Below are positions 8,586 through 63,398 of a stretch of DNA of 64,000 bases, in pieces. The stretch is from contig CDROCS010000186.1 of NCBI GenBank assembly GCA_977020255.1, positions 62,001 to 126,000 on the forward strand, in the 5' to 3' direction. Made by a program: the position numbers and the translations under genes. Below the pieces are notes generated by a model, which ran no database searches, was not told the origin of the DNA, and saw only the letters and a program-made list of their open reading frames with translations. Origin of the DNA: Obrimoposthia wandeli. Its lineage: Eukaryota. How positions within the stretch are numbered: position 1 is the stretch's first letter; every line of letters starts with the position of its first letter.

Positions 8586-11500
8586 TTAAGTTAAATTAAA
8601 ATTACCATAAGCAAGGGTTTTATTCTTACTAACCCATCTCATTTTATCGTCAAAACATTTTAAAGCAACTTTAGAGCTAAATGTTGTATGATGCTGATGG
8701 TTAATCGATGCTATACGTTACTGGTTAACACTCATAATTTCTTCATTTTCATAACAGTCTTGGTGTCTTAAATTAGTTTGTTTTAAAGAAATACCCTTAG
8801 CCCTTAATTTATTTTGATGTTAATAACATTTTGGTTTTAAGAAAACCCACTCATTATAATCAGTACCCTTTCGTCTTTAAATTTTCCAATTACAGCTTTA
8901 AAGTTTTCTGAATACAAGGGATGTGTTTTTAGGATAATTACTCGTATCTAAATATTCGTCCTTAATCATTTCTTTGAGTAATTTATCTTTATTAATATTC
9001 ACACAGTCAAGGAAAAAAGAATCTGTGTCCATAGCTACAATTCAAATACTATAATTAAAAGTTTGCCTATACCGTTCAAGCTCAACATATTGTAATTGAT
9101 ACATTCGTAATTTATATAGATCAAGTACAGCTTGACCGATATAGGATGCCGATCTAAACATATTTCCTATTTCTGCATAAAAACTAAATTTAAATAATCA
9201 TTTATTTGAGTATGACGTTTAAACCAAGGACTCAAACTAATTTTTCAAACCGTTTATCGTTATTACATAATCTGATATCAAGCCGATTCTTAAGATTCTC
9301 AACCGTTTTACCGTAAACGGAATTATTTTTTTAATTTAAAAAACTATTATTCAAACCTATTAACACCAGTTGCATGCTTGTTTGAATTCAAATCTATATA
9401 TTGTTTGAAAACGGGTGCTTGTGTAAACCGAATAGCCCTCTGAATCTTTAAGATTTCAGCACCAAGAAAAACATAGAATTGTAGTAAACGGAAATGTATT
9501 ACATAATGTTCTTTATCATTATGTGTTAAAAGTAATTTAGGAGTTTTTGAGTTTGGTGGACACATCTTATGTGGTCCAATAGGTAAGTCATCAACTTTAT
9601 CATGTATACGATCCGGAATATGTAAATCTTCTTCAACAAGAAAACCCCATACGGTTTTACTTAAATCCCTTTCACTTCCAATTAAATTCAAAATTATCAT
9701 GCACCCATTTAAATTCCATATGTGGTAAAGGTTGACTTAAAGCCCATCCGTATAAGTTATTCACATCTATATAGAGAAGTGATGTACTATCATCGGACTT
9801 ACAATAATGTGTATTGACAAAAGTCATACTTCCTCTAATACCTGCTTCAAAAAGATTAAACATTTCTAGATCATGAAGCAATTATACTTTATGTTTTAAT
9901 GATTTTATTGCACTACACCAACTAAGACCGGGAATACTAAAGAAATTAAGAGCCTCAAGATTATCATCAGATCTAACTTTCTGTCTAAAAGCCTCAAATA
10001 CATCACAAAGTAAGTATACATCAAGACGCATATATTCCATCATATAGTCTTTTATTTAAGTGCAACCTATTTTTGTCCACATTGTATGAGCTAAATTATA
10101 TTTATCATCTGTAATGCTATTAGGAAATTTGCATTTTGGAGGCAATCTATCTTCATACAACTTAGATTCACTGGAAATATATTCATAAGGGAAAACGCCT
10201 TTACTAGATATAAAATCAGTACTAAAATATCTTGAGATTTACGGTGAACTTGGAAGATAACTAACCAATCTTTCAAGACTAGTTGTAAAAAGATATGAAT
10301 CTAAAATTTCAATGTTCCAGTTGATAATTCTATTTTGAGAGCCATGCATTTTTCACTAGATTTGGGTATGATTGAATAACCTTTCCCTTTGCAAATTTTA
10401 AAATATGATGAATATCATAACCCATTAAGTTGTGAAAAAGTACTGGTAACATAGTTCTTTTACCGAATCTATGAGATAACTTACATTTATTAAACGCTGC
10501 ACCCAAGAATAAACCTGAAATATGATCATGATCACGTACTAAATCTCTAGTGATTTAATAACAAAGGTAACATATGCGACTCTTTTGAAAAGCTACCTGA
10601 TTTTCATTTACATTATAAGTGGTGCATGCATATTATTTCTCCAAAAAGGTGCAACAATTTCATTAAGAATTTCCGTTAATTTATCAATAAAGTATGTAAC
10701 ACAATCTAAACCGAAATACGAAAAGTATTCTATTGTGTTAGTAACATTTTTTTTAAACAACATTCCAACTGCAATGGGAGTATGTATATTAGGCCGGGTC
10801 GAAATTTTATATTTGAATTACACATTATGCCTTGAGTTCCCTTTGGGTTCCTGAACAACATACTAAAATTACATTGCCATGCGACCCACCCTACCCATCG
10901 CATACGACCCCATCATTTTTGTTAAATCGTATATATTGTATATGTTTGACAGTCACATCAGGTTCTAAAATACTTTCAAAATCAGCGTAAACTACAAAAG
11001 GAGGTTGAACTGACTTTGACCAATCTGTGAATTCCCAATATTTATTATCCGGCTTAGTGAATAAAGTTAGTGTATCAGTATTAAAATTACAATGGGTTCT
11101 ATGTTTATCATAAGCTGCCACAGTTCGAAAACCAAAAAGACATTTCTGACACCAGTAAAGGCGTAAACCATAGCTATGACAATTAAATAATACCACAATA
11201 ATGATAAGTGTTAAGGTCTTCTAACGAAAGTAAATTAACAATTTGATTACATTCCCGTAGTTTTGTTCGGTAAATTATACTAACTGCAGGACTTTTCAAT
11301 ACAATTATTTAACTTGTCTGTTCTAATAACAATAAAATCATCATCGAAAACTGCAGTCTTACAACTAATAGGCCATGTTTTAAATTAGTTTTCTATGTTT
11401 ACAAATTGAGCTTCAATACCAAATTGGATTTTGCAAGGCCCAAATGCATTAATTTTTTCATATCATTATTAATAACCAGTTTTAGCATATTTTGGTTAGA

Positions 11501-11665
11501 TGTAGTATCAAAAATAAGATTACCTTGAAGTGCGCCACCTATTTGATTATCATTTGTTATTGCTTCAAGGCCTACAGTTGCTACAAATTCATTATATAAT
11601 TTATAAAAAAAAATCATTATATAATTCATAAAAAAGTTGTTTTTCATGTGTATAAAGTAAATCAT
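8586..11665 (-). pseudogene. Protein-primed DNA polymerase B of the Maverick (copy A), fragmented
   Basis: Motifs: PFVVYADFES (ExoI), LNFFSIPGLSW, GIRGSMTF, LYIDVNNLYGWALSQ (motif A), VAMDTDSFF (motif C) and C-terminal FDDKMRWVSKNKTLAYG ending at the stop 8586-8588. ORF-track pieces are 10891-11196, 9672-9881 and 9347-9700. The N-terminal boundary is uncertain. Confidence 0.9.
10790..10936. mobile_element. 147-bp insertion with 7-bp target-site duplication inside pPolB A
   Basis: TGTATAT flanks it at 10783-10789 and 10937-10943. Removing the insert plus one copy restores the frame DVTVKHIHTPIAVG, matching HQIHLPIAAG in pPolB B. No TIR seen. Confidence 0.7.
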
Positions 11666-11974
11666 TAAAATCTAGAGATTCATTTCAATACTTATCTAAT
11701 TCATCATCATCATCATTTAAAAATGTAGCGAAATCAAAATTAGGTGAAAATGTTGGACTATCAACTATTTGGAAATCAAAACTATCAACTGGTATTATAT
11801 TATTAATTGTTTCTAGTTTTATAACTTCATTACTTCTTGATGATGGTGATGATTTACGTTTATAATTTGATTTCTTGGTATTAAAATAAGAATAAAAATC
11901 TAAATATTCTATGTTTGTGAACAATATATCACACGATGGACATATGGATTCGTTTTTAAACTTTTAATATTTTT

Positions 11975-12456
11975 TCATAACCTCATGACAATTACTAGTA
12001 TAATAGTTATAAAGTTTACATGGTGGGAAACCATTTTAGGAAAAATACTAATTAAAGCGCCATCAAACAGCACATCAGCTAACCTATCATCAAGGTTGAA
12101 TGATGTACCTAATCGATTAAAATATAATTTTCGGGTTCCATATATTGAGTAAATTTTCTCAGCTAAGTCTTTTCTCAGGGCATCTTGTGAAATTTTAATA
12201 ACTTTAAAACAATTAAGTAAACTTGTATTAATATTTATAAAACGATCATTAAAACTAGAATTAACACCAAACATTGTAGGAAAAATGGTGACAAGTGCTG
12301 CGTCATATAAGACATCGCTAACCTTGTCACAAAAATTAAAGAACTTTCCAATTTGTTTAAAATATAATTTGCATGAACCAAACGCAATATAAATTTTTCA
12401 GCAAGGTCTCTAATTAGTTTATCAGGTTCAATTTCTATTTGTTTAATGGAATGCAA
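11975..12456 (-). pseudogene. Maverick accessory ORF(s) with an internally duplicated domain, unknown function
   Basis: Two overlapping ORFs contain alignable segments: RDLAEKFILRLVHANYILNKLESSL..TRLA and KDLAEKIYSIYGTRKLYFNRLGTSF..DRLA. Confidence 0.4.
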
Positions 12457-12859
12457 TAAATCAGCATGAATTGTTAACTATTCTAGCTCTTTTTTTAGTT
12501 TCCTTCTTTTTAAAGCGTCGTTTCAGCTTATCCTTAAGGCGCTTACCCCGTTTACCTGACACTTTAACTTTGGTTATTGATTCAACATTAATATTATCTC
12601 GTACATCATTTTTATGGTTTTTTTGTCACTCACATCTACTAAAAAATGACATAAATCATTAAAAGGAGACGTATTTGGGCTGCCTATTGGTGTAACAAAA
12701 TATGGTTTATTAATCAAAAAATATTTAGTGTTGCTGTTATTATTTTTTAAGTAGATGATAACATCTCCATTGCAGAGCCGCCTAAAGCGGGGAGCCCTTT
12801 ATCCAAATCAATGTTACCATTATTAAAAAAAAATCAAATTATTCATTATAAAAAATATA

Positions 12860-13080
12860 ATAATAATACAGAGATACACAAGAGATTGTCAAGATATTCA
12901 ACTTCTCAACTTTTTAAATCAAATTCAACTTTCAATCAAATTCAAAAATACACAATAGATTGTCAAGATATTCAACTTCTCAACTTTTTAAATCAAATTC
13001 AACTTTCAATGAAATTCAACTTTTCAAATCAAATTCAACTTCTCAATTTCTAATCAAATTCAACTTCAACTTTTCAAATT
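12860..13080. repeat. Short degenerate tandem repeats (CAAATTCAACTT units; a ~90-bp duplication)
   Basis: AGATTGTCAAGATATTCAACTTCTCAACTTTTTAAATCAAATTCAACTTTCAAT occurs twice, followed by further CAAATTCAACTT units. Confidence 0.75.
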
Positions 13081-13601
13081 TCTAATAAATGAATCTAAAA
13101 TAAATAAAAATGTCTTACATCAAAAATCGTTAAACAGGGACTGCCATTAATGAAAAATGGTATTGTTTATATCAAAATAAACACCCACAACGTAGGATAA
13201 TGTAAAAAACTTACAAAAATAAAAAATTCGGTACTAAACGCTTATAACGTAGTATATTTTAAAAATTAGATTTTCAACATTTTATTTTAGATTTGTAAAA
13301 ATTATTTTTTAAATCTTTAATTTCATTTAAAATATTGATTTTTATATAAAACTCTACATAATTTAAATCTATATAAATTTCAGATTCTAAAAATGTCAAT
13401 AATTGTTTTAAAAATTTATTTTTAGTTTATTGTTTTATGTAATTTAGTATGATTATTCAGTGTTTTTAGAATTTTTAAATTTTTAAAAGGTTTTAAAACT
13501 TTTTTTATAATTTTTTGCAAACGATTGTAAAACATGTCATTTATAAATGTATTTAAAAATTTTATTGAAATTAATATTTATAATCTATATAAATCTAACT
13601 T

Positions 13602-13961
13602 TTATAAAATAAGTCGTTTAAATTCGTAAAATTTATTAAGAAACTTGATGATACAACCATAAAAGACATAATGATCACAATTAGTAGTTAATAGGTTTTG
13701 CATACGAATTTTATTTTTGAATACATGGCGTTTCACTTGAGTTTCCACATGTCTGATGAGTGCTGACGGATAATAAATTCCTAGAGGATCGAATACGTGT
13801 ACACTATCACGTCTCACGAATAGCGAAATACAGTGTTCACCAGGTAAATTACTTGTATGAGTATTTACAGCATATCCGCCAGGCTTTAGAGCCGGTATTT
13901 TATCCATGGGAAACACTCCTTTGAATTTCTGTTCCAATAATTCAATTCTGACAGCATACAA
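13602..13961 (-). CDS. Adenain-like (C5) maturation cysteine protease of the Maverick, 5'-truncated
   Basis: YAVNTHTSNLPGEHC (His), FDPLG (Asp) and RMQNLLTTNCDHY (Gln/Cys) follow the adenovirus/Polinton protease motif order. Confidence 0.85.
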   Translation of the reverse strand: MYAVRIELLEQKFKGVFPMDKIPALKPGGYAVNTHTSNLPGEHCISLFVRRDSVHVFDPLGIYYPSALIRHVETQVKRHVFKNKIRMQNLLTTNCDHYVFYGCIIKFLNKFYEFKRLIL

Positions 13962-14259
13962 TCAATACGAGTATTATTCAAGTGAATTTGTAGATCTTTA
14001 AAGTGTATGGAAAAAGAAATTTGATAGGTACGAATTTATCGGCTTCCACTATGTCAATATAACTGTTTGTTCCATTATGTTTTAAAACTTTAATTTTCAA
14101 ATATAATAGAGAATCATTCAAATCTAAATATTCTGTTTCACTCCATTGAATAATAAACTCAATTGTATTATTATTACTACCGGTAATATTATTAACAAGG
14201 TAAATATTCTCAAAACATCCATTTTCTATAGCAATTTCAGGTAGTGGACGAATAAACAA
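13962..14259 (-). pseudogene. N-terminal ~100 aa of the double-jelly-roll major capsid protein; remainder deleted
   Basis: TIEFII..ETEYLDLNDSLLYLKIKV, then after a frameshift FHTLFKDLQIHLN, matches the start of Maverick major capsid proteins. It abuts the protease directly. Confidence 0.75.
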
Positions 14260-14289
14260 ACATAATGTAGATTTTGCACAAGCAATTTC

Positions 14290-14690
14290 TTACTCAAATA
14301 TGGTTCTTATTTTTCTACGTTTGTTTATACTACCACTACCTTTTTGTACTTCTTTCATTTCAATCTGCGATTGAGATAGTGCTGGTCGTTTTCGACTTTT
14401 CTTTATTGCAGTCATTAGTTGAGTAGCAGCTTTTGTTGCTTCAAGCATCAACTCCGGTACTTCGCTAATTGTATTAGATTTTAGTTGATTCAAAATTGGT
14501 TTATCGTTCATTACTACATTTGTAAGTGTTTTTGCATCAATTTGTCCTAAACGTGATAGTATAGAAAACGCAATTTGCCCCTAAATTTTCATCCAACCTG
14601 AACCATATTGTTTTCCAACAAAGTAAGGTAGTTCACCACCCGTTTGGGTTGTACTATACACATCAAAAAGATACATTATTAACGATTAAC
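14290..14690 (-). pseudogene. Putative Maverick core-like basic protein
   Basis: QTGGELPYFVGKQYGSGW, then a basic tail (KKSRKRP..QKGSGSINKRRKIRTIFE). QxGxG sites of this kind are typical of small Maverick proteins between the capsid genes. Confidence 0.55.
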
Positions 14691-14695
14691 ATTGT

Positions 14696-15768
14696 TTAAT
14701 TTTGTTTATACATAACTTTTCGAAAATGTAGTGTTAAACTAGTTTTTGCGTTATGAGCAAAGTTTATCGGTATTCCACTATCATTACGAATATTTACTTC
14801 AATATTAGAAATATATATTGATATTATAGGAAGATACATTGGTTTAATGATTATAATATTTACGGTTTTTTTAACCAAATTGATTTTAAATTTAGAATTT
14901 ATACCGCACCAACATTTATAGACTATAAAATTAGTATACAGGTACATGTTATTAAACTCACATATTAATTGAGGTATACTTTTACCGTCACCTGTAAATT
15001 ATGTTTTATTAAGACCCAGTACAAATGCCATACGAGTGTTAAATATTATACTTGAAATATTATATTTTAACTTGATTTTGATGAATTTATCTTTTTCAAT
15101 ATAAAACATGCTAAAAATATGACTACATTTAGATATACGTTTTTAACTAATGGAGTCAAATCTGTACTATTGAAATCGTTGTCAAATACAATTTTTGATT
15201 TGATATTTTTATTTTCAATGTGATAATATTCAAATTTTGTTGATACACATTGAGGATGTATGGTCATTTGAGCAGTTAAAATACCGTTATCATCAGATGC
15301 AAAATAACTTCCAGATAATTTTATATAGAATTTCTGTTTATTTACAGATTTTATAACAAGTACATTTTTTATCTACACCTTCACCATATGTACCAAACGC
15401 ACAATAAAAATGAGCAATGTGTTTTGATGATTTTAATTATACTTTTGAAATTTTCTTTACAATACGTTTAACAGGTGCTAACTTTTCACCATAAATTTTC
15501 GATTATGTGATTATTTCCTCATCTTTAAATTCAACACCTACTGACACAGTATCGGTTTTCATAGTGCTATTCGTTTCATTATAATTAATTTCGCCATCCT
15601 ATAAGTAAATTCTGTCAATGCAACTTCCCATACACCTTGAAGTTCTATCGGATTTTCCCAATCAACAATAAAATTTGATGCGATATTTTTAGGTTGAGTG
15701 TTTGGACAACTGTTAGATGGTAATACAATATGGAAATGTTTTACTCTATCTGGTTCGCTTTTATCCAT
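14696..15768 (-). pseudogene. Minor capsid (penton-like) protein, frameshifted
   Basis: N-terminal FHIVLPSNS..NIASNFIVDWENPIELQGVWEVALTEFTY and C-terminal IEVNIRNDSGIPINF..TSLTLHFR. Confidence 0.8.
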
Positions 15769-15774
15769 GTTGGT

Positions 15775-16730
15775 GTTTTATATCCATGCCACTACGTAAT
15801 ATTGTTTATTCTTACCTCGACCTTTAGATTTAATGAATTCTTGTATCCTATATACTTTTGGTTTATCAATAACTTGTAATTCTTGCTCATAAAACTTTCC
15901 CTCTATTGGACTTTTATCCTCATCTATGATGTTATACATAATGGGGTTTGCACGTAAATTGATTTTTGCTATTTCAAATACTTCATCACTCCAATTATTA
16001 TCGAAATATTTAATAAAAGGTGTTGTACTTAGACGTGATATGCGAACAAAATCTTCAACTTTGTATTTAAGTTTCTTTATTATTTTTTATTACGAGAAAA
16101 CCAATCATCAAATGAAATATCTATAGGTTTCTTACCACTTAAACCGCGATGTGGTGGGTGATTATATGAAATTAACAGTTTAACCTTTACCCATTTCTTT
16201 GATCCAATTACAACAAATTGTTTATTTAATTTATCCCTTAATGTTCTATTAAATCGTTCCACCAAGGCCGCTTTAAAGTGTGAAAACACAGAGTAATGAT
16301 TTACTCCTAATTTATCAAAAGTTGCTTTAACATGTTTGTTATAAAACTATTTTCCAGCATCTGTTTGTACATTATCGGGTACAACATCAATCATATTTTT
16401 GATGGCAGCCTCTATATCTTTTCTGGATTTTGATTTTACCAGTTTAGCACGCCCAAATCTAGTAAATACATCAATACATGTTAAAATATATTTGTAACCG
16501 CTAATGTATCGTGTCCATCAAATCCATTTATCGTAACTTATTAGGGCCACTAGTCTTGTACGATCGTGTTGGAAACCTTTTTCGAATTGGTTTGATGAGA
16601 CTGTACTGTACGCTAGTTGATTGCTCAACCATGGTTGAATTTTCTTTTGACTTGACTTTGTGTTTGATGATAATAATCTAAGGCTGCTGTACCCAACTCG
16701 GTCTTCGGGATCGTACCATCTCGTACCATT
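15775..16730 (-). pseudogene. Retroviral-like (rve) integrase with C-terminal chromodomain
   Basis: YILTCIDVFTRF, VQTDAG, KAALVERFNRTLRDKL, YNHPPHR, WSDEVFEI and KSKGRGKNKQYYVVAW in shifting frames. Confidence 0.85.
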
Positions 16731-16769
16731 ACAACAATTTATTTTAAATCAAAATTAGGTAAGTTGTAG

Positions 16770-17040
16770 GGGACCCTATAAAGTTGCAACTATCTGTAAA
16801 GGTGCATCAATAAATCCTACTTTTTGACGCAATACTATTTTACTTCGACCAGAACTACTTTTTGTATTAACAATATCAAGTAGTACTTTCTTGTTTTTTG
16901 TAACTTTACCTTATGTTTACTGAGATTGACTTTTCCTATATTACTATACTAAACATAATTCCAATCAATTTATCGATAACAAAATCTGGGAATGACTTGA
17001 GAATTCGAGCTCTATGTGAACTAGGTGCCTTTAAAAGCGT
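16770..17040 (-). pseudogene. Small conserved basic Maverick ORF
   Basis: YFQTLLKAPSSHRARILK..GKVNLSKHKVKLQK..VLRQKVGFIDAPLQIV (reconstructed across frameshifts) resembles the small basic ORF found beside Maverick integrases. Confidence 0.45.
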
Positions 17041-17609
17041 TTGAAAGTAAGGTAAAACGTTTTAATTATTTTTTAAACTGAAAGTACATATATTGTTTAC
17101 AGTCTTATTGAGAAAATGGATTAAAACCTCCTTCTTGTTTTACTTTTTTATCAATTACAATCCAATTCTTTGTCTTTTAATAAACTTATTCTTATTTTTC
17201 TTCGTTTTAACATGTTTCCTTTTAGTACTGGAGTTTAGTATTCTTTTTTTAAATGCGAATATAATTTTGCCTGATATACAGCATTATTTTTAAGTATCAT
17301 AATAACAATAATAAGAATAAGAATATTGTTTATAAGCATTTTATTAATATATACACCATACAAGAATTAAAAATTGATACAGAAAAAGTTACATACATCA
17401 TATTTGAACGAATAATCTGAATGAAACTTTCAAAATGCAATTTCCATTTGATATCTCTGTAGACATGTGAGCGAACTATTTCTTTAAGATGATTACGACT
17501 ATCTTCATTAAAACTTGAAAAGTATTGAACTCTATTTATTGTTCCTTTTATAATTTCATCAACTAATTTATCGTATCTCTCCATTCTTGTATAAATCACC
17601 AAATTTCAA

Positions 17610-18400
17610 TTGTTTATACCATGACATTTTACATTTCTTACTCTCCTTTCAATTATATATCGACATACTGGACATGAATGTAACCTTCTGGAACATGAAA
17701 TACATGTATTTATATGTCCGCATGGTATAAATATGATTATTACTTCAATATGATTATTTAAACATACTACACATTCAGGTTCTTTTAATATCTATGAAAA
17801 TATATTTATATATTGTTTTTCAGGGTTTATTTCTAAATAAGATAAATCATTTCAAATATCCATCAACATATCGAATTTTTCTGTAGTTATAGGATATTCA
17901 ATTATACAATCTGTTTCGATTTTCTCAATAACATTAGCATCATTACAGAGTCCCAAACGTTTTGGATAACATATATGAGGTAATTTTACATTAATATCTG
18001 ATACAAATACTTTACAATCAATGTTGATGTATCAAAATCGATTTTCTTATTACTAGTTTCAATTATTGGTACATTTTAAACATTTAACTTTAAAATAAAT
18101 GGACATGTAGGAAAAGATTTCATATGTTGCTTCATTGGGTTAACATACCATTCCCATTCGGATAATGCACCTTGACAGTATATACATTTTACTTTATCGG
18201 TTGAATCATCATCATGTTTATAAAATCCGGCTCTAGCTAAATCATATGTAGATTGTTTCCCTTTAAAATTTATAAATAACGATTTCAATCTTTCACTTTC
18301 ACGTCTATATTTCACATGTAAAACTTTCATTTTAGAATAATCTACTTTTCGTCTAACTAAAACATCCTTAACAGTTTTATAATGAAGTATATAATCAACA
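17610..18400 (-). pseudogene. Inhibitor-of-apoptosis protein (single BIR + C-terminal RING), frameshifted
   Basis: BIR at 18076-18330 with LARAGFY and exact C-x2-C-x16-H-x6-C spacing. RING at ~17660-17773: CVVC..FIPCGHINTCISC..CPVCR. Confidence 0.85.
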
Positions 18401-18439
18401 AGTATTTTTTAAAAATAAAAAACATATATTTGTTCATAA

Positions 18440-18606
18440 GAAACTTTCAAGAAAAAATACAATAGACTCGACTTGACAATGATAATCAAAATCTTTAATA
18501 CCATGAATAATCACTTTTCCACTAGCAAACATAGATGATTAAACTTTAAAATTCTGAGTGCTGGAAACAATTCTGGTTCAAATATACAATTTCTTCCCAT
18601 TTTCAT
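18440..18606 (-). pseudogene. TATA-binding-protein (TBP)-like fragment
   Basis: MKMGRNCIFEPELFPALRILKFNHLC / FASGKVIIHGIKD across one frameshift, compared with TBP repeat-2 YEPELFPGL..LLIFVSGKVVLTGAK. Confidence 0.65.
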
Positions 18607-19264
18607 AGATATTTTATACTACTATAGTTATTTAAAATTAATCTAACATTTTTATTTGGTATTTATTTTGGTATTCGTTAGTGTTTCTATAATTTAATAT
18701 ATTTAAACACATTTATAAATTTATCACATAAATATTTCTTTCGATAACTTTTTATATACTGAAAACTAGCAGATAATGAAATTGTTGGGGTTTCTATACG
18801 AAACTTGGTACAGATCCTCTGAAATGCGGAGGGCCCCAACGTGAGTTCGAATAGAAGCAGGTCTTAAAGTTGGTCGTGGCCTACTTAGTGTTATGGTTGC
18901 CTATCTCTTGTACTATCTGAAGGTATTTGATTTGATGTCTCTTATTCTGAAGGGTGCAAAAACAACTTGTTCTAATGTAGGAAATTGTTTATTGGTAATT
19001 CACGAAACTAAACACAACAATACGTTTATGTACGTATTTCTAAAAAGTATGGTAAAATTCCTAAGACTTCTGTAAGTCTCTACAACAAGTGGGGATGAAC
19101 CACGTATCGATTTTACGTTCGGGGTGATCGAGATTTTAGAGTTATTCTTCTTCCTAGGTTGGTTAATTTATAACGCAACTCTCTTAAATTTCTTCGACTT
19201 AACTTAGAATGTGTGGATAAAGTTTCTTGAATCGGCAACTCTATTTGTTGTGTATTCGACCACG

Positions 19265-50349: not shown

Positions 50350-50636
50350 AATCCGTCGACATTCTCTAATAACTTATGTCTGCTAATGTTAAAAATATTG
50401 TTATTTATCCCCAAAAAACACTGTTGATCAAAGTAGGGGTTACGGATGAAAAATATAAATTCAAGGATATATTTTAATTAAATTTATGGGTTAGAAAGGG
50501 TGGTGGTACCACTTAGGCGCCACCATTTCCCAAAAATTTATTTAATAGAAGAGGTGGTGATCCTTTGATCAAATGGGCGTCACCAGTTCCCGACGGAAAA
50601 GCAAAAAATGTAAATTAATGTACTATTCTCACTTAC

Positions 50637-51010
50637 CACATTTTCAGCTTGTTCACGATCACGCAGGTATAGTTGTAACTCCAAGCATTGGTCCAGCTGC
50701 TTTTCACGGTTCAACAGGCATCATTTAACTGTTCTCTAACATCAGCGATGCCCTGCAACTTCTCTTTGATTTCGCCTTCTGCATAGTGACCAGTTTTCAG
50801 CAATTCGTTACCGAAATCTTCAAAATTGTGAAATGTTCCAGACCTAGCTTCGATTTCAGCTTGATGCTCCCTATGTCTCTCGTGTAAAGCTTCAGCGCCA
50901 GTGACGTATTTTGCAAGTTTATCTGAGTTCACGAGACCCGTCATTGTATTTATTCATGACATTAGATCACTATAGTCGGCCAAAAACTTCTGCAAATCAA
51001 TGGAATTAGT
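50637..51010 (-). pseudogene. Isolated alpha-spectrin repeat fragment with premature stops
   Basis: DLQKFLADYSDLMS*INTMTGLVNSDKLAKYVTGAEALHERHREHQAEIEARSGTF..GHYA..KQLDQCLELQLYLRD.EQAEN follows non-erythroid alpha-spectrin. Two Trp positions are TGA. Confidence 0.85.
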
Positions 51011-51053
51011 AGATAGATGTGTCCAGTTCCGGTCACCTCCCCCCCTAGCGAAA

Positions 51054-51058
<5 letters not shown>

Positions 51059-51093
<35 letters not shown>

Positions 51094-51930
51094 TGGGTGG
51101 AAATTTTAAATACATACTATAATACTTAATTTTTCTAAGGTCAATGTGAAAAGTAGGTCAAATTTTGTTATAGTACACATGATTTTTGAGGGTTAAATTC
51201 ATATTTATGTCACTTTATACTATAATACGTCTGTTTTTAGCGGATTTTACTCTAAAATTAGATGTTTTTGTTTAAATACATCAATTTTTATGCCCGCAAA
51301 TTTCAAAACATACTATAATACCTCATTTTTCTAAGGTCAATGTGAAAAGTAGCTCGCATTTTGTTATAATACACATGATTTTGAGGGTTAAATTCATATT
51401 TATATCACTTTTTACTATAATACGTCTGTTTTTTAGGTGACTTTTTCTCTGAATGTATAAGTTTTTGTTTAAACACATCAATTTCTATGCCCACAAACTT
51501 AAAAACATACTATAACACGTATATTTTTCAAGATAATTATTAATGAAGGTCACATTTTGTTATAGTACACATGATTTTGAGGGTTAAATTCATATTTATA
51601 TCACTTTATACTATAATACGTCTGTTTTTTAGGTGATTTTACTCTGAATGTATATATTTTTGTTTAAACACATCAATTTGTATGCGTGCAAATTTAAAAC
51701 ATACTATAACACGTATATTTTTTCAAGATAATTATTAATGAAGGTCACATTTTGTTATAGTACACATGATTTTGAGGCTTAAATTCATAAGTAGATCATT
51801 ATGTGTTGTATTACGTCTGTTTTACTCTAAATGTATATCTTTTTGTTTAAACACATCAATTTTTATCCACGAAAATTTAAAAACATACTATAATAAGACT
51901 ATTTTCAAGATCATTATCAGATGTGTTACT
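51059..51930. repeat. (TA)13 microsatellite followed by a ~196-bp tandem repeat (~4 copies)
   Basis: TA run at 51059-51084. TTTTGTTATAGTACACATGATTTT recurs at about 51163, 51359, 51555 and 51750. Confidence 0.9.
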
Positions 51931-52111
51931 TTTGAATCACATCACCCTATCCCTCCATATTTCACACAAAGTGAGATGTATTCTTATGTTAGAAATATTT
52001 TATTAATATCAAAAAGACAAATCAAAATATGTAATAATATAGACATAAATCAACAGATGAAGAATATAATAAAAATATGATACAAATACGATAAAAATAT
52101 ACAATAAATAA

Positions 52112-55100
52112 TCATTCATTCATAATATACTCATCCGGATGAAGATAATGACCATATGCAACTGACCGATTCTTTTCAACCCATTTTCGCTTATCATCCG
52201 CACTACACAATGCTATTTTAGATAAATGCATAGTATATAGCTGATGATTAACGGAAGTTATAAGACTTTGTTGAACACGCTCACATATACCTGTCTCATA
52301 AACAGCTAAGTAATTCTCGTGTTTTAAATTACTCTGTTTAAGATTAATACCCTTTGCTCTCATATGTGATTCATCATTGATAGTTTTTAGGCTATAACAT
52401 TTTGGACGAAGAAATATACATTCCGTATAAGTACAAATACCCTTACTTTCATCTGTAAACTTTCCTATCGCAGTGTTAGCTGTTGAATAAAGAGGGTGAT
52501 TTTTAGGATACTTAGATGTATCTAATAATCCTTCAGAAACCATTGCTGGTAGCAATTGTGCTTCTACATCCACATTTCTACATTTCAAGAAGAAACTGTC
52601 AGTATCCCCAGCAACAATTCTAATATCACAACTAAATTCCTGACGATATTTCTCAAGTTGCACGTACTGGAGCTCATACATTCGCAATTTGCTAAGATCT
52701 AGTACTGCCTGCCCTATATAACTAGGCCTATCCAAACAAATCATGTCTTTATTCAGTAAAACAGCTATTAGATCAGAATCTATTTCTATAGTGCGTTGAA
52801 ATTGCGCCTTACTACAATAAGTAACTAGTTTTTGAGACGTATTACAAATCCTTAAATTAATTCGCTTTTTCAAATTCTCAATCAATTTTCCGAATAGCGA
52901 ATTAACTTTCAGCTTATAATAATCTCGTTCAAAATCATTAGTAGCAGCAGCCCTTTTTGTTGAATTGTCTTCTATATACTTTGCAAAAACATTGGTTTGT
53001 GCAAACCGAATTGCTCTATGCAGGAAATCTATTTTAGCCCCAAGCCTCAGATACATTTGAAGCAAACGAGAATGGACAATGTAATGCTTCTTTGGATAAG
53101 GAGTTAAAAGTAATTTAGAAGTACGACTTCCAGGCGGGCAATCCTTACGTGGAGCTAAGGGAAGATCGTCAAGTTTATCATGCAATTCATTCGGAATACT
53201 TATATCTACTTCCATTAAATGAGCATAATCACTACAGCTTAGTCTTTATATGAGAGCTCATGAATTATTACTTCTAATTCCAATCGGTCAGTTACCCAGG
53301 TAAAATCTCCAACCGGTAAAAATTGGGACATAGCCCATCCATAAAGATTGTTAACATCAATATACAAAATAGTATCACCATCAGAGTTAGTAATCTTATG
53401 TTCGTTCACAAAGGTCATTCCTCCACGAATACCTTCTTCAAACAGTCGATGCATCTCAGGATCTTGAATCAATTCCACAGTAGATCCACCTGGAACCCTC
53501 GGTCTTTCTGCGCTTGACTCAGTACCCAGTAATGACTTGAAAGCGCTTGCAAATGTTAAACCTATGTAAAATTAAATAATGAAAAATAATAATAATATCT
53601 AACCTGGGATAGAGAAGAAATTGAGTGGTTCCAATCCATCATCAGCGATAGCCTTCTCTCGAAATGTTGTAAACACATCCGCAAGTAGATATACATCCAT
53701 TTTGAGATATACCAACATATAGTCCCAAAGATATTCACACCCACTCTCGTGCCAAACTTTCTCCGCCAACTCATATTGTTCACTTTTGATCTTCCTATCC
53801 CATTTTGATGGAAGGCTTGTTATTGATCGGAGAGCACTCTCTGATACCGCCATATCGTATGGAAATATCCCTTTACCATTCACAAGATGAGGTTGAAAAA
53901 CAGAATGTGTCAATGGAATGGAAACTAAGTTTTCCACGAGTTTTTCAAGACTACTATTCAAAAACTGCAATGAATCGATGAATCGAATACAAACTCCTCC
54001 AATACGCACTATCATTACTTGGAATTTTTCTGTTGATTGAGGTATAACAGAGACATTCCAGTCAGAAAAGTTGCTCAGCGCATGTTTGAGAATGTGATGG
54101 AGATCATACCCTCTCAGGTTATGAAACACCACTGGGAGAGTACGATTCACTCGTCTAGATAAATTGCACTTACTGTGAGCAGCTCCAAGGTACTTACCCA
54201 TCATATGATCATGGTCTCGTACCTTTTTAATGCATGTCTTATTACAGAGGTAACAACTAGTAGCTGATTTAAAACTAGCTATTTGCTCAGGCGTAAGTGT
54301 TTGCATAACTTCCGCTGCATGTCTCTTATACCAAGGCAAAACAACTGTCTTTACCAGCATTTCCAGCTTGGAAAGAAAATCAACAACACAAGTTTCACCA
54401 GTGAAAAGCAAGTAATATTGAGTGTATCCTGTTGCAGCAATTGGAGACATTAACATACCGGCTGCAATCGGGAGATGAATTTGATGATGAATGCCATGGG
54501 GTGGGAGAACTGATTCAAAATCCCCGTAAACAACAAATGGTGGAGAAATCGTTTTTGAAAAATCTGTGAATGAATATATTTGTCCTCCGGCATCTGGTAT
54601 AGTGTATTATGTTCCATATTCATCATACAAAGTGGTTTATGCTTCTCAAAACTTATTGCCCGTCTAAATCCATGAAGACACCATATACATCGAATTCGTG
54701 TAGAACCTTCTTCTTTGTTATAATAGATTAGAAGCCTACTAAGATTTGGAACTGCAACGTAGTGATATTTCTCTCCTTCTTCTAACAGAATCAGATTAAC
54801 TGGATTGCCGCCAGGATTGGTGGTTCGATATAATATATCAATAAAAGGATTCTTAAAAATATCCTGATCCGGAGAAGGAATGATATTGATGTGATTGTAA
54901 GTGAATACATTTATTGATAAGGATGAATTCTCTCTTTCGAAACGAGGAATATCATCTAATCTCATAGGCATATCGTTTAAAGAGTATATCAAATCTCCTA
55001 AATATGCATCATATTGTGAGACTCTATACCTATGCTGAGATATAATATCGTACTTCAGAATAGAAAGGATGCTATAGATAAAACACAAAACACCTGTATT

Positions 55101-56005
55101 CTGAACATTCACAACCGAATTGTGAAGTTCATTTGGCGTAGAAATATATGCTTTTCCTTGAAGATAATTAATTTCCGTGGTCTTAATGATAATAAAATTT
55201 ATCTCCAGGATGCGTTTGAGTTGCCAATTACTGGCATTCTGAGAATACTTTTCAATCTTAGCATTGAGAGACTCTATACCCCGACCAACGAATTCAGGTG
55301 AAAAGAAAGTAGCCTTGTTTGAAACATTCCATTGTTTCACACCACTCTCATTCTCGAACTCCACCTGGAGACCGAATTGCACCTTACAAGATGCGAATTC
55401 TTCAACTTTTACTCTTAAAGAGTCAATAAAGTGCTGCGGCACATCTAATTCAATAACATTATCGCTAGTCAAATTCAACGATAATGTCACATAAGACCCT
55501 CTTAGTCCTTTCTTTTCTCTAACAATCCCTAATCTCACACTCTTAGCCGCAGATGCACCACTAGTTGATGGCATCGCGCTTGTCGACGGGGGCATAATCC
55601 GTTTTTGTGCAGGTATTGTACTAGTTGAAGGCATAGCTGGAGGAGAAATCGGCACAGGAGTAGATATACGATCAGGATTGAATGACATTGAGACTTTATC
55701 AGCTTCGGAAGTTGATTTAACATTTTGTATTCCCTTTTGATTGAAAACTATATTCTTCTTTCCTTTAGCTCCAAAATATCCTAGATGTGATTGATGTATG
55801 GAAACAAAAGCTCCCCATTCTTCTTCAGCCGCTTCACATTGAGGACATATATAGAAAATACGTCCATAGAACTTTGTTCCAAAATACTGCTGCATCTTGG
55901 TTTGGCAAATCAAATGGTATTGATTAAAGCAAAGATTTTTGTTAATATTGCACTAAAATTATAATTAGTGAAGTAATATAAAAATAAATTACTTACATTA
56001 GTCAT
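52112..56005 (-). pseudogene. Near-complete protein-primed DNA polymerase B (copy B) with N-terminal zinc finger, endonuclease VII-like module, two predicted short introns and two frameshifts
   Basis: Motifs: VYGDFES, CYLC..VRDHDH..CNL, VFHNLRGYD, YLKMDVYLL, LYIDVNNLYG, KLKVNSLFGK and VAGDTDS. Predicted ATG at 56005 and introns at 55953-55996 and 53562-53603. Frameshifts at ~54575 and ~53230. Stop at 52112-52114. Confidence 0.92.
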
Positions 56006-56283
56006 TTTGTAATCAATTAAACACTAATAATTCTTTTGTTTATAGACGTTGTTACATTTATAGTAATTTATTGTTTATATTTCAAGTTCTTTGTTAAAAA
56101 TAACACAGTAAAACAAACATAAATTTACTATGTAACTTTTTTAAATAATAATTTTATTCCATTTTACTTATAGTAACAACAACAAAAAGTTTTATAAGCA
56201 CAATTTTTCCCATGCTCAATATATGAACAACTAATAATTGATGGGATCTGTGAAAGCCCTTTCAATGTTTTACAGAAAATTCA

Positions 56284-56660
56284 CAAGTTTCTAATTTGTT
56301 TGAAAGAACAAGGAGAGTTGGTGAACACATCTATATTAGGACATGCATGTATGTGAATATGTGCATGTTCTGATTTTGTTGATGCAATTATATGTAAGTT
56401 TCTAATTTGTTTGAAAGAACAAGTAGAGTTGGTGAACACATCTATATTAGGACATGCATGTATGTGAATATGTGCATGTTCTGATTTTGTTGATGCAATC
56501 ATATGTAAGTTTCGTATTGGATGACAAGAACAAGGAGAGTTGGTGAACACGTCTATATTAGGACATGCATGTATGTGAATATGTGCATGTTCTGATTTTG
56601 TTGATGCAATTATATGCAAGTTTCGTATTGGATGACAAGAACAAGGAGAGTTGGTGCATG
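56284..56660. repeat. 111-bp tandem repeat, ~3.4 copies
   Basis: Unit starts recur at 56284, 56395, 56506 and 56617. Confidence 0.92.
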
Positions 56661-57399
56661 TATATATTTGGACATAAATGTATGTAAAGATATATGTGTG
56701 TGTGTTCTAATTGTGCTAGTATTTGAAAACATATGCATGTTAAGAACAGTTTACATCAAGAATCGATATATCAGTATATGTGAGAATAACGTATAGTACT
56801 AATTATTCTCATGTAATTGCATAACTATTAATCTCATATCCTAATACTTATTAAAATCAATGAAAATACTTATCAGTGACAAGTCATGAATGAGAACTTG
56901 TAAATATATTGAAATCCTTTCATTCTACTGAATTCATGAATCATAAATCGACTCAATTATATCAAATCCATGATAATTAATCAAATACATCAAATATCTG
57001 TATATTCATTGTAAAACACACATACAGTTAATCAATAAATACATGTAAATATGTTAAACCCCTAGTAAAACACAACAAATATCCGATAAGACAAATACAG
57101 TAAAAATCTATGTTAATTAATAAATAAATCATATACAAAATATCCTATAAATACATTAAAATACTCTAAATCAATATCAAATCAATATTAATATATAAAA
57201 TGTATCAATAAATCATATTAAAAATATCATATAAAGTCATTAAATTTCTATTAAAAAAAATATATATATATATATTTCATGCACAAAACGTTTTTGGTGA
57301 AAATTATGTACAAGTGATTTAAAAACTTTTTAATTTTGGCGTCAAAAAATTTTAAAAATTTAAACAAAAGTTTTTTGAAAAATTAATTTTTAAACTTTT

Positions 57400-57665
57400 T
57401 GGAAAAAATAAATTTTTGAAGGTTTTGAACCCTTGAAGGTGTACCCTCGAAGGTCTAATCAAAGTCAGATCAACGCTATTATATATAACTTTGAAAAGTA
57501 GAAAAATAAAAATTTTGAAGGGTTTGAACCCTTAAAGGTCAAGCCTCGAAGGTCCAGCCAAGTTCTGGTCAAGCCTATTATATATAACTTTGAAAAGTAT
57601 AAAAATACATTTTTTGAAGGTTTTAACCCTTAAAGGTCAGACCCTTGAGGATTAACCTTCGAAGA
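57400..57665. repeat. 99-bp tandem repeat, ~2.6 copies (after a (TA)7 at 57261-57274)
   Basis: GAAGG(T/G)TTT(G)AACCCTT recurs at 57418, 57517 and 57616. Confidence 0.85.
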
Positions 57666-60449
57666 TTCATCTGCAAAGTTCAATGGGCTATCCTTTAGTT
57701 AAGACCGCATGTCAATACGACCTTTAGATAAAAAGTTATTAAAGTTTGAAAGGATGTTACTAAGAATAGAAGGAAAAATAACATGTTTAGAGGTTTTAAC
57801 CTAATTTTAACCTAACCCTATCTCTATTTACTTGTTTAACTCATAGGTTTAAAAATGTGTAATAAATAGCTTAAGATTACAAAAAACGTTTTCTACTCAC
57901 AAATAAAAGTAGAATCAATTATACAAAATAAGTCATCACTTCTCACTACTTCTACAAGTTGTTCTTTATTTATGACTTGTTTAAAGTTTTTTACTTCTAG
58001 TAGTGCTGGGTGATTTTTGATTTTATCGTTTAGTCCATATAGAAACTGATGTAGTAGTAAGCATTCTCTTAAAGATTATATAAAATCATAATTGATTATC
58101 TGATCATGATATTGACGTAGTATAAGTTTCTTGAGAAAATAACCAATTTGGTTCACTTTATTTTCTTAAAGCTCTTAAATATACAGTAATTCTTCTATTT
58201 ATTATTACTTCACACTTAACCTCAATGGTGATTTAATTGAAGTATTTAATGACTGTGTACAACTTGATGAATAGAAAAAAAATATATGAAAAACTTGAAT
58301 ATGACTTACTATATCGAAATAATAGTAAAATATTGATAATTTAAGTACAACTTTCAATAATCACCATATGTCTTTCAAGGTTTTATATAGAACTTTAAAG
58401 CTTACGATAACTGTTATAATATTGATGAATTATATCAATATTATTACTTTGGTATCAGTTTCTTAAGAAAATTATCAATTACATGTGATATAAAATCATC
58501 TTTCAATACCTGTTATGATTGTAAATTTGATATAAGATTCTTTGACATGAGGTATTTTCATCAGGTTTGTGCATAATATTGATACAATACATACATTATT
58601 GATCATTTCGGTATAACTATCTTTGCAAATAATCAATAATATATGAGGTTATGTAAAGATTTCGTCATGCAATACATGTTATTATCGTGATGATTTGTAT
58701 GCAGTCCTTTTAGAGTTGCTTGAGGAGAAAATAACCCATCTCGCTTCTAAATTTTTCTTAATATTCCGTCATACATCACAATATCTGATTAATTCCTCAA
58801 CTTTTTTAGGGTATATTTTCTCTTCTAAAATCTCCTAAATACTTCGTAATATCTTCTTCTACTTTGCATTGCTTCATGAAATGCTACATTATAAATATCA
58901 TATCAATGATGATTCAAGGCTGGCTGATGAAATGAATGTAGATAAGATGCTTGAATATTGACTTTGGAAGTAGTCTTTGGATATTAGTTAAATCTATATA
59001 ATTTCGGTATAACTTTCTTTGAGATCTTGGGTTAAGACTATTTATGATCACGAAGCATCTTCCAGATATTTCTCTGTTATGTTTGAAGTAATTGATTGAA
59101 TCCATGAATTTGAAACGATGGATGAAATTGATAAGTAATGGATAGATATGTCTCTGTAACTATTTGATTCATTCTCACTAATACTCTTAGAAATTTTCAA
59201 TATTTTTCCTTTTGAAACATATATAAATAGTAATTAATCATTTATATTCTTGAATATTGCATACGTTTTAATTACTATCTCTTCTCATATATAACAATCC
59301 GGGTATAATTTCTTCATATATCACAAGTCCAACTTTTAGAACATAATTATAAATTTTCCTATAATTCTTAATAACTTTCCTTCCCATAAACCTCTATTAT
59401 CAACCCTAATTTTTTAAAATATTAAGCAAGAGGTTGATTATATATGTCAAACAAACCAGGTATAATTCATAATTTCCTCACATATATCAATTCTTTACCA
59501 CTATTCTTCATTATTGCATCTAAATTTCAATAAAATACTTCAAACATTATCTTTAAAAAAATAGCATACCTAGCTTTGATTTTAATTGAAGGAATGTAGA
59601 AGGAATAGATAAAATGCTTAAATATTGGCTTTGGAACGATAATATTGATGACTTCGATAAAACTCTCTTTGAAAATAACTTATTTACTATGTATTAATGA
59701 AATCGTTAATTTTCATTCAATGTCTTAATATTAATTGATAAAAGTATTTTTTAATGTCTAATGAAGATAGAATCCATTTATATGAACCAAAACTATTAAT
59801 AGTAATCATAAAGATTTCACCCGATTTTTTATAAAAATATGATGACTTTATCAATACTCAGAAGTTGTTTCTTTAAGTTTTCCTTAATACCTATTGACTT
59901 ATAAGTAGCTATTTACAACATCATTGATTATTTTCAACTATAAAATCAATAATTGAGAATATGCACACTAATCGTTATTACTCAATATCTAACCTAAACC
60001 TCTAACTTCTAATACTCTAATTCTAATATTCTAATTCTAACACTAACATCATTTTCCAAAATATATGCGAAAAATTTACAAGAAGATGGTAAAAGTTTGA
60101 ATAATATCTCTGCTTTTGTAAAAATTGTCTTCGTTATGACCGAAATATGAGTAAAATACATATATTATGATTAATTTTTGGTATAACTCGCTTTGAAGCA
60201 GTATAAAGCTGAAATTCAATATGATCGCTTATATCATAATCTTAAATGAAATGACCGGAATTTTGATAAAATACGATTTCACTACAGTTTTAGAACAGTA
60301 GTCTTATTTCCCTTCTAAACCACCTAAATATCTGCTAACTCACATTAAATTTCCTTTCAAAGTCAAATATATCCTATATTTTTTCTTCTGAATCCTACTA
60401 ACCTTATATACATCGCTTTTATTTTCATTCAATCTAGCTATCTAGGCTA

Positions 60450-61300: not shown

Positions 61301-62585
61301 ATCCATTATTTTCTATTCTTAAACCTTATAAACACCCATGTCATATCTCATCTAAATGTAACAAATCTCATGCATCTTCTTTATTTATCTTATAGAACCT
61401 TTTATGTATAATTTCTTTACTAGACCGATTTATTTGAAGTAATAAATCGACTGGTCGTTTCCAATAAGTTTCCATAATATTGATAACATCAATGAATCAA
61501 TAAGCTTGTAGAGTTTTGCAAGAATTTTCTTGTTTGATATATCGATCAATGAAAAATTATTTTTTGAGAATATAGTTATCAATAGACTCAAGTAATATGA
61601 ATAAATTATGACTGAGATAAATACATACTCTAAACATTATTGAATAAATTATATCAATAAATGATACTTGAAAATAATTTTAGGTTTAAATGAATCGAAA
61701 GAGAGAATATAATTTAATCCCTTTCTAGTCCTGATGTAATAATTTCTAAACAAAATGTTCCAATATAGTATTGATAATTTAATTAATTATTTATTACATA
61801 GATTAATTTCCTTAAATAAGCTAATCTTCAAACAATATTCTTTGAAACTAATCATTTTTTAGTAACAAAACTTTTACAGATTCTTTTACAAAAAAACTTT
61901 TAGTAGAGAACATTTTAGATTTAATGTATCATTTTGAAATTTAATAAAATTCTTAGTTAAAGATGCAGATTAATAATATACTCTTGATCGTAAATTGACT
62001 AATTGATCAAAGTAATCTCTCTAATTATCCGTATAATTGTCCGTAATAAACTCTCACATATTATTATTTTTTTTTCTCTTCAAATTATATCTTTATTACA
62101 CGAAGAAATCCTTTAAATATGTTGAAGAGAAATCCAATTAGTGCATCTACCATATAAGAAACCATGAAAACTTTATTGACGCGCTGGCACATAAGAATCG
62201 TCAGTAAATACAACTTATTTGTTCTGAAAGTAATTTTGTCCTTAAACTAAAATCAAAGAAAATTTATAGAAATATGGGTAAATTCATTGAAAAATGATCA
62301 ATTATTTGCATTATAATTTGCATTATTCTAAAAATCCTTGGTAAATGTATCTTCTAATCTAAAAATAGACTGAAAATCGAACTTTCTAATTCGAAATTTA
62401 CATTATTCAGAAAAATTACACAGTAAATTCTTTTGTCAACTAAAATCCTTATAAATGATTTAAGATTCAACTTTGCATCTTAATTTACCTTATTCTGAAA
62501 TATACACGATAAAATGTATTCTAAAATCCATAAATATAAACATAAAATGATTAAAAATCGAACTTTTTATATCCAAATTAGAATT

Positions 62586-63052
62586 TTTTTCTAAAGTGTC
62601 ATAATGTAGACGTGCAAGCTACACTGTTGTCTGCAATGATTTCAGATGGATTATTAGACACATCAAAATTTTCTATAAACCATCCTTTAGCCAATACTGC
62701 GATATGCAAGTTTAAGGACGAGAGTAAGCAATGTAGATATAAGCAATGGGTATTTTTACGCTCCAAATCATATAGCTTAGAAACTATAGACGGAAAGTTC
62801 CAGATGAGAGCAAAGGGAATTAGTGTTAAGCAGACTGTGCTACGCCATGCGAATTATTTAGCTGCATATGAGAGTGGGGTTAGTGAACGAGTGCAACAAC
62901 AACGCATTAGTTCAATTAATCACCAGCTCTATACCGTAAATATGAGTAAGATCGCATTGAGTAGCAATGACGATGAGAAAAAATGGGTAGAGAAAAACCG
63001 GTCAGTTGTCTACGGACATCATAGATATCCAGATGATTTTTCACTTGAATAA
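62586..63052 (+). pseudogene. 5'-truncated C-terminal fragment of pPolB (copy C), closest to copy B
   Basis: FFLKCHNVDVQATLL..GLLDTSK..KFKDESK..RAKGISVKQ..INHQLYT..KWVEKNRSVVYGH is collinear with 52112-52600. Confidence 0.9.
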
Positions 63053-63398
63053 TTGTTTGAATTTGTATGTCACAAATTTATTGTACCTAATTTTCTCTTT
63101 AGTTTAATAAATATTTGTATCCAATTCGTCTTTTTCTAAGTTTAAAATTTTAAAGTATAAAAGTTCTGTGTAAAATTTTAATTCTAAAGTATAAAAGTTC
63201 TGTGTAAAATTATTTTTTAAACTATAAAAATTGTTGTAAAAAATTATGTTGGAAATTTTATTTTTAAACTATAAAAATTTTGTAAACAATGGTGTATGTT
63301 AGGGTCTTAGGTATGACACGGGTCGTTTACATGTGTAGTTGTGAGAGGTAAAGTGATACTGTAGCGCATGTTTTTGAGGTTATTTTCGCGAGAATGGA

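Follow-up and report, generated by a model that had tools for sequence, protein, structure and literature searches.

The pPolB gene of Maverick/Polinton elements in the genome of Obrimoposthia wandeli is interrupted by short segments which, with a probability that we put at roughly 0.88, are true spliceosomal introns, of the shortest size class known from this host. The introns of these core genes are probably real and functional, are conserved across element families and across genomes, and do not point to domestication. The window analyzed here is a stretch of 64,000 nucleotides of contig CDROCS010000186.1, in which the polymerase gene of one element family, termed family B, was read as follows:

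55997..56005, minus strand: pPolB exon 1, start codon and two further codons, from sequence reading
55953..55996, minus strand: intron 1, 44 nt, phase 0, GTAAGT..TTTTAG, 86% AT
53604..55952, minus strand: pPolB exon 2, N-terminal region, with a frame change near 54570 in the window copy
53562..53603, minus strand: intron 2, 42 nt, phase 1, GTTAGA..ACATAG, 88% AT, two in-frame stops
52112..53561, minus strand: pPolB exon 3, polymerase motifs, with a frame change near 53243 in the window copy
53490..53525, minus strand: 36-nt in-frame segment, earlier put forward as a third intron and now read as a probable variable coding loop

The first two segments had been described in an earlier note on this DNA, and both were recovered in full: segment 1 with its GT-AG ends behind the three-codon exon that starts at 56005, and segment 2 in its AG|GT context, in which two in-frame stops were found. 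The reading frame that follows segment 1 had been given as 487 aa and measures 500 codons from stop to stop. Intron 2 splits the Gly codon of the S-I-P-G motif. AG|GT surroundings are a property of family B only, the context common to the families being G|G. When the B coding region was scanned for donor, acceptor and AT content, segment 2 was the sole match, and none of the 3714 other 42-nt windows reached 88% AT (maximum 81%). A clear branch-point motif was not seen in intron 2. Exon 2 gave a weak endonuclease VII-like match and contains the start of DNA_pol_B_2, and in a profile search PF03175 was matched by three pieces of the window gene, two of them above the cut-off. The proposed third intron was rejected, as the segment is 53% GC and its acceptor is AG in just 19/30 copies and TG in 11/30, making it probably a coding loop; loops rich in Ser and Pro, differing in length, occupy this place in families C, F and G. 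The frame breaks near 54570 and 53243, which the earlier note did not mention, show that the window copy is decayed; broken twice, it is non-coding as it stands.

The polymerase gene is surrounded by remnants of several elements:

51008..51045, plus strand: Maverick-type terminus AGTAG... of the family-B element; the same end occurs in 12 other places in the 20 stretches searched
51008..57801, no strand assigned: surviving part of the family-B element, polymerase gene between tandem-repeat arms, far terminus missing
8598..18615, minus strand: decayed family-A Maverick with a pPolB lacking intron 2, protease, candidate capsid genes, integrase, PZ and a TBP-like gene
62582..63250, plus strand: 3' fragment of a third pPolB, its DNA 82% identical to family C

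The arms of the family-B element consist of 196-, 111- and 99-bp units. Polymerase A occupies about 8600-11460, and protease, capsid, integrase and TBP-like remnants of that Maverick lie at 13677-18615, the protease with its 5' end deleted. As had been claimed, polymerase A is uninterrupted at the intron 2 site and reads through at about 9930. The two polymerases are, however, not paralogues of a single element, since A represents a Maverick family of its own, badly decayed and with a protein identity of about 45-50%. A BIR-domain ORF was noted within the family-A region (18076-18408), and just left of the family-B terminus lie a ubiquitin ORF (49993-50373) and a BEL/Pao retroelement remnant (45170-46999).

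Intron 2 was then followed through copies and families. A 601-nt family-B probe yielded 2813 candidates in the 1.35-Gb genome, and the best 40 of these, which were scored, are 98-100% identical. In the 30 closest loci, window included, intron 2 is always present with a length of 42-48 nt and has GT..AG ends in 29. The upstream frame is open to the locus edge in 7 of these 30 fetched loci, and 6 retain the downstream frame in its full length of 486 codons. Family C, the DNA of which is about 70% identical to that of B, harbors at exactly the same position a GT-AG segment of 133 nt with unrelated sequence; it was found in 30/30 loci, 12 of them from one tandem array, and its length is not a multiple of 3. 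At the same site family F has 174-181 nt (10/10 copies), and the old, decayed family G has 76-77 nt, with the donor kept in 8/10 copies and lost in 2/10 and the acceptor read in 4/10. The intron 2 sequences of B, C, F and G, of about 42, 133, 179 and 76 nt, respectively, are unrelated to each other. Family B escaped the automatic intron scan, which also put acceptors of C and F at wrong places; the lengths given here were read separately. Intron 2 is absent from families A (20/20), D (4/4) and E (1/1), and from 39/39 metagenome contigs covering the site (of 53), three of these being distant and decayed.

B, C, F and G group together on a single branch in a tree of 90 rows (SH 100), and again in a 76-row tree of the polymerase part (SH 100); both were built with FastTree and carry SH support only. 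The sister of this clade differs, being E in the 90-row tree and D or P0026 in the 76-row tree. Between B and C, dN/dS is 0.069 before intron 2 and 0.060 after it, ratios that are rough because dS (2.8 upstream, 2.3 downstream) is near saturation; the downstream pieces of C and F were aligned just in part. One clade and dN/dS near 0.06 on both sides fit a single gain, and a one-time gain of intron 2 in the common ancestor of the four families is probable. The intron gain at this site postulated earlier is therefore supported by both trees. Subsequently, intron 2 would have changed length by local slippage with its ends kept; such growth is suggested by repeats that the introns of C and F contain.

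Intron 1 was detected in 19/19 of the B copies found, always with 44 nt and the same ends. In families C and F an intron of 39-43 nt follows the start codon immediately, its position being one codon upstream of that in B; GT..AG is present in 10/12 C copies. As the positions are one codon apart, a common origin of these introns is likely, though not exact. In uninterrupted relatives the polymerase begins 2-4 residues ahead of the first conserved Cys, at the point where exon 2 sets in, so that the small exon 1 supplies the expected start. Leader introns are also present in contigs L186 and L204. Further AT-rich GT-AG or GC-AG segments were observed just upstream of the polymerase start (L104:5115-5165; L200:270-315) and are possibly 5'-untranslated introns.

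To what kind of element these genes belong was read from copies with both ends. Among four two-ended family-B elements, two are 7.0-7.1 kb long and hold pPolB only, and the other two are 12.4-kb mirror-image doubles; a 6-bp target-site duplication is perfect in three and agrees in 5 of 6 bases in the fourth. The family-B termini are related but unequal, and the window copy retains one of them. The rve integrase, packaging ATPase and adenain-like protease are absent inside the family-B ends. Two-ended elements with just pPolB and target-site duplications identify family B as a mobile, polymerase-only 7-kb Maverick derivative, which would probably be integrated in trans by complete families. Family B would have lost all other genes after intron 2 was gained. 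The 12.4-kb elements (L031:5982-L032:8405; L034:7294-L035:9650), in which a polymerase gene is present twice and the target-site duplication is perfect, resemble snap-back products of protein-primed replication.

Family C, in contrast to B, has a TBP-like gene, ATPase, integrase, capsid candidates, protease and pPolB. Two elements of 13.1 and 14.1 kb have identical ends (34 nt printed) and perfect 6-bp duplications, and profile matches were obtained to rve (2.8e-13), Pox_A32 (4.5e-7) and Peptidase_C5 (3e-4, just under its cut-off). By its ends, duplication, polymerase, integrase, ATPase and protease, family C is a Maverick. The capsid candidates had no Pfam or PDB sequence match, PDB sequence searches in general returning nothing useful; the Atlas gave a first match of 0.98, to a cluster with 30% PF21738 DJR-like members, at a recognition value below the tool's mark, and it is on this lead and on gene order that the candidate capsid identity rests. 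The labels mCP, PZ and PW in family C are presumed from gene order. Over 601 nt, 16 places in the genome are 100% identical (query counted), indicating a recent amplification of family C with the frame-breaking segment in place.

Several unusual arrangements of these elements were observed. Two-polymerase chimeras are present in 8/14 family-C loci with flanks (L042, L110, L116, L119, L145-L148), a family-B polymerase being joined head to head to the right arm of family C, which comprises capsid, protease and polymerase. One chimera of 10.8 kb (L119:1991-L120:2824) has one B end, one C end and a perfect 6-bp duplication, and thus moved as a unit. One contig (L067-L078) carries a tandem array of about 3.1-kb units, each with part of a family-C polymerase. 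Mavericks are often inserted in capsid or polymerase genes of other Mavericks (L043/L044, L037/L038, L108, L031), which suggests a target preference.

A wider pattern, missed by the earlier note, which had dealt with the polymerase, comprises introns in the protease and TBP-like genes and more polymerase introns outside this genome. The protease has a phase-2 intron of 36-42 nt two bases past the start codon, and this position is kept across families and hosts. It was found in all five protease-bearing families (A, C, D, E and F), the proteins of which are about 50% identical; in family A it has a GC donor and is known from one decayed copy. In family C it is present in 30/30 fetched copies, and 29/30 protease frames contain no Met at all. 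Among metagenome contigs, four of six have it (L184, L186, L198, L215), L204 and the distant L224 being without it. A search for homologues of the protease returned 5 predicted proteins, each of which begins with Met; as protein sequences they are uninformative on introns. The other core genes of L184 have long frames free of interruptions, so that this contig is not a decayed copy. The protease start-codon intron is probably older and would lie near the base of the wider clade.

An intron of 37-42 nt in the TBP-like gene was found in C, D and F and is absent in E, L184 and L186. Two other polymerase introns, of 43-45 nt, are common to contigs L197, L201 and L205, and several independent phase-1 gains of this length were seen in relatives. 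All introns of the wider clade fall within one 41-row branch (SH 99), and the distant L228 shows intron-like breaks too. This patchy pattern indicates that introns were gained several times and lost in some cases. L184, L186 and L198 showed no terminal repeats and may thus be incomplete, and scans of viral contigs revealed no relative. The TBP-like gene (PF00352, 1e-11 to 1e-18) adjoins the ATPase (L107:1478-1987; L184:11330-11806; window 18448-18615). L184 has two minor-capsid-like genes in tandem and, at its end, a ubiquitin-conjugating enzyme gene (PF00179, 1.7e-12; L184:13477-13977).

Host introns had been described as at least 150 nt long. This holds within the window, where the host gene, encoding the NADH dehydrogenase 75-kDa subunit, has long introns only, but not genome-wide: six introns of 43-50 nt were found in three myosin genes, among 17 gaps chosen for shortness. 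Hence the Maverick introns belong to the short class of the host, the 36-42 nt protease introns lying slightly below the sampled host sizes. The host is probably a planarian, as judged from three features. One animal protein of the host is divergent, with 49-70% identity to molluscs, insects and nematodes. The host genome was also seen to contain about 20 intronless, divergent CCT/TCP-1 paralogues (G000, L126-L132 and others) and gypsy elements with a mononegavirus-type fusion domain, like the Burro elements described in the accessible part of PMC6431247. Polinton transcripts of planarians increase upon PIWI knock-down, according to the accessible part of PMC8532177.

Several features of U2-type introns were found: conserved GT/AG, a fixed position with drifting sequence and length, selection on the flanks and a size compatible with the host. 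As a frame-shifting segment was carried through recent amplification with strong selection downstream of it, splicing is the best explanation. In contigs from four sequencing runs of one sample of unstated type, none of the 7 listed joints jumps exactly over intron 2, and none of the 15 joints displayed out of 60 lies at either intron; neither result bears on splicing. How the introns arose is a separate matter. Delivery by an introner, which would leave them real introns and concerns their origin alone, is quite unlikely: introners in Maverick-like elements have been published (PMC11957031, accessible part), and the independent 43-45 nt gains in relatives would suit such a source, but by eye the Maverick introns compared have no sequence in common, show neither terminal repeats nor duplications that they share, and are simply rich in AT.

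The segments might instead be inactivating insertions, with B, C, F and G being copied in trans by the uninterrupted A, D or E polymerases. Family B is indeed reduced, and uninterrupted polymerases exist in the genome; yet the dN/dS of about 0.06 downstream of the segment and the retention of its ends, while the interior diverged beyond recognition in four families, make this very improbable. Moreover, the protease segment is common to every protease-bearing family, so that no intron-free helper was seen. We give hardly any credence to expression of the unspliced gene, whether through stop read-through, through frameshifting or in the form of two separate polypeptides. The length of intron 2, a multiple of 3 in 29/30 B loci, would accommodate it, but the two in-frame stops in B, the 133 nt in C and the mixed lengths in F fit no single recoding rule, and most C protease frames are without a start codon. 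The suggestion that real introns mark domestication of the polymerase as a host gene, for which the host-type intron size and the lack of capsid genes in B could be cited, is just as implausible and largely refuted, since a single fixed copy without mobile ends was not what was found: the introns sit in high-copy mobile families with 6-bp target-site duplications, the window copy is broken, and the same introns occur in complete 13-14 kb Mavericks with candidate capsid genes.

Genuine introns in active Mavericks thus remain the preferred reading. In the mechanism that we propose, host Pol II would transcribe the element, a U2-type spliceosome would remove the introns, and the full-length enzyme would be made from spliced message only. 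Unspliced intron 1 would yield a 31-residue peptide. Retention of intron 2 would lead to a stop within 0-8 codons in all four families, before the polymerase motifs; this stop falls between positions 160 and 203 of the PF03175 profile. Without splicing, the family-C protease would have no start codon. Taken together, the gene structures strongly suggest that this Maverick lineage would depend on host nuclear splicing for its polymerase and its capsid protease. As for the proposed step toward transposon-like life, the polymerase-only family B is in keeping with it, but the intron predates this reduction and is carried by complete elements with candidate capsid genes.

Adenovirus Pol and pTP probably have a three-codon leader exon, although none is described in the accessible part of PMC9499273. 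In common with adenovirus E2B, a protein-primed polymerase would here be produced from a spliced message. Unlike the long alternative introns of adenovirus, which belong to one transcription unit, the introns described here measure 36-180 nt and lie inside single genes of an integrating element. According to the accessible parts of the respective sources, adenoviruses descend from polintons (PMC11161782) and the polymerase message of the E2B unit is spliced (PMC9499273).

With vertebrate and nematode Mavericks, family C shares AGT-type ends, the 6-bp duplication, pPolB, integrase, ATPase, protease, two candidate capsid genes and PZ/PW candidates. It differs from them in the conserved GT-AG introns in pPolB and protease, and the present elements further differ in the TBP-like gene and the amplified polymerase-only 7-kb derivative. 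As far as the accessible text of each source goes, vertebrate core genes are reported to be intronless (PMC8097293) and nematode core genes likewise, with introns in cargo genes only (bioRxiv 10.1101/2022.07.12.499685). Intronless core genes, part of the description in PMC8097293 and not a defining trait, were not what was found here. The nearest published case, in the part of PMC11957031 that is accessible, are dinoflagellate Maverick-like elements, which also contain spliceosomal-type introns; there, introners were mostly inserted after integration. The dinoflagellate introns are transposon copies, whereas here intron positions were inherited through element evolution (dS >2) and across genomes. 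Conserved spliceosomal introns in core genes of animal Mavericks are not reported in the accessible portions of PMC8097293, PMC10748475, PMC8502044, PMC11161782, PMC6431247, PMC8532177, PMC10120064, PMC12220804 and bioRxiv 10.1101/2022.07.12.499685; supplements or Repbase entries may already annotate them.

For the study of these elements, this has direct consequences. In the sections at hand, intact Mavericks are recognized by ORFs free of introns (PMC8097293), and in a large survey of protists genes were called with a prokaryotic finder, since endogenous viruses 'do not contain introns' (PMC10120064). An intron-bearing clade would be scored as dead or protease-less in intron-free pipelines, and active Mavericks may therefore be undercounted. 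From the findings, several gains and losses of introns also become datable on a virus-like tree, and splicing is placed inside the group from which, according to the available part of PMC11161782, adenoviruses arose. We consider it a speculative and somewhat unlikely idea that splicing is a control layer in the Maverick clade, foreshadowing adenoviruses, in which the protease intron would gate capsid maturation and regulated retention of intron 2 would give rise to an N-terminal priming/exonuclease product that lacks the polymerase palm. A Maverick with candidate capsid genes would be tied in its expression to the host nucleus, the junctions can be assayed directly, and the time at which the replication and capsid genes of Mavericks are expressed becomes testable.
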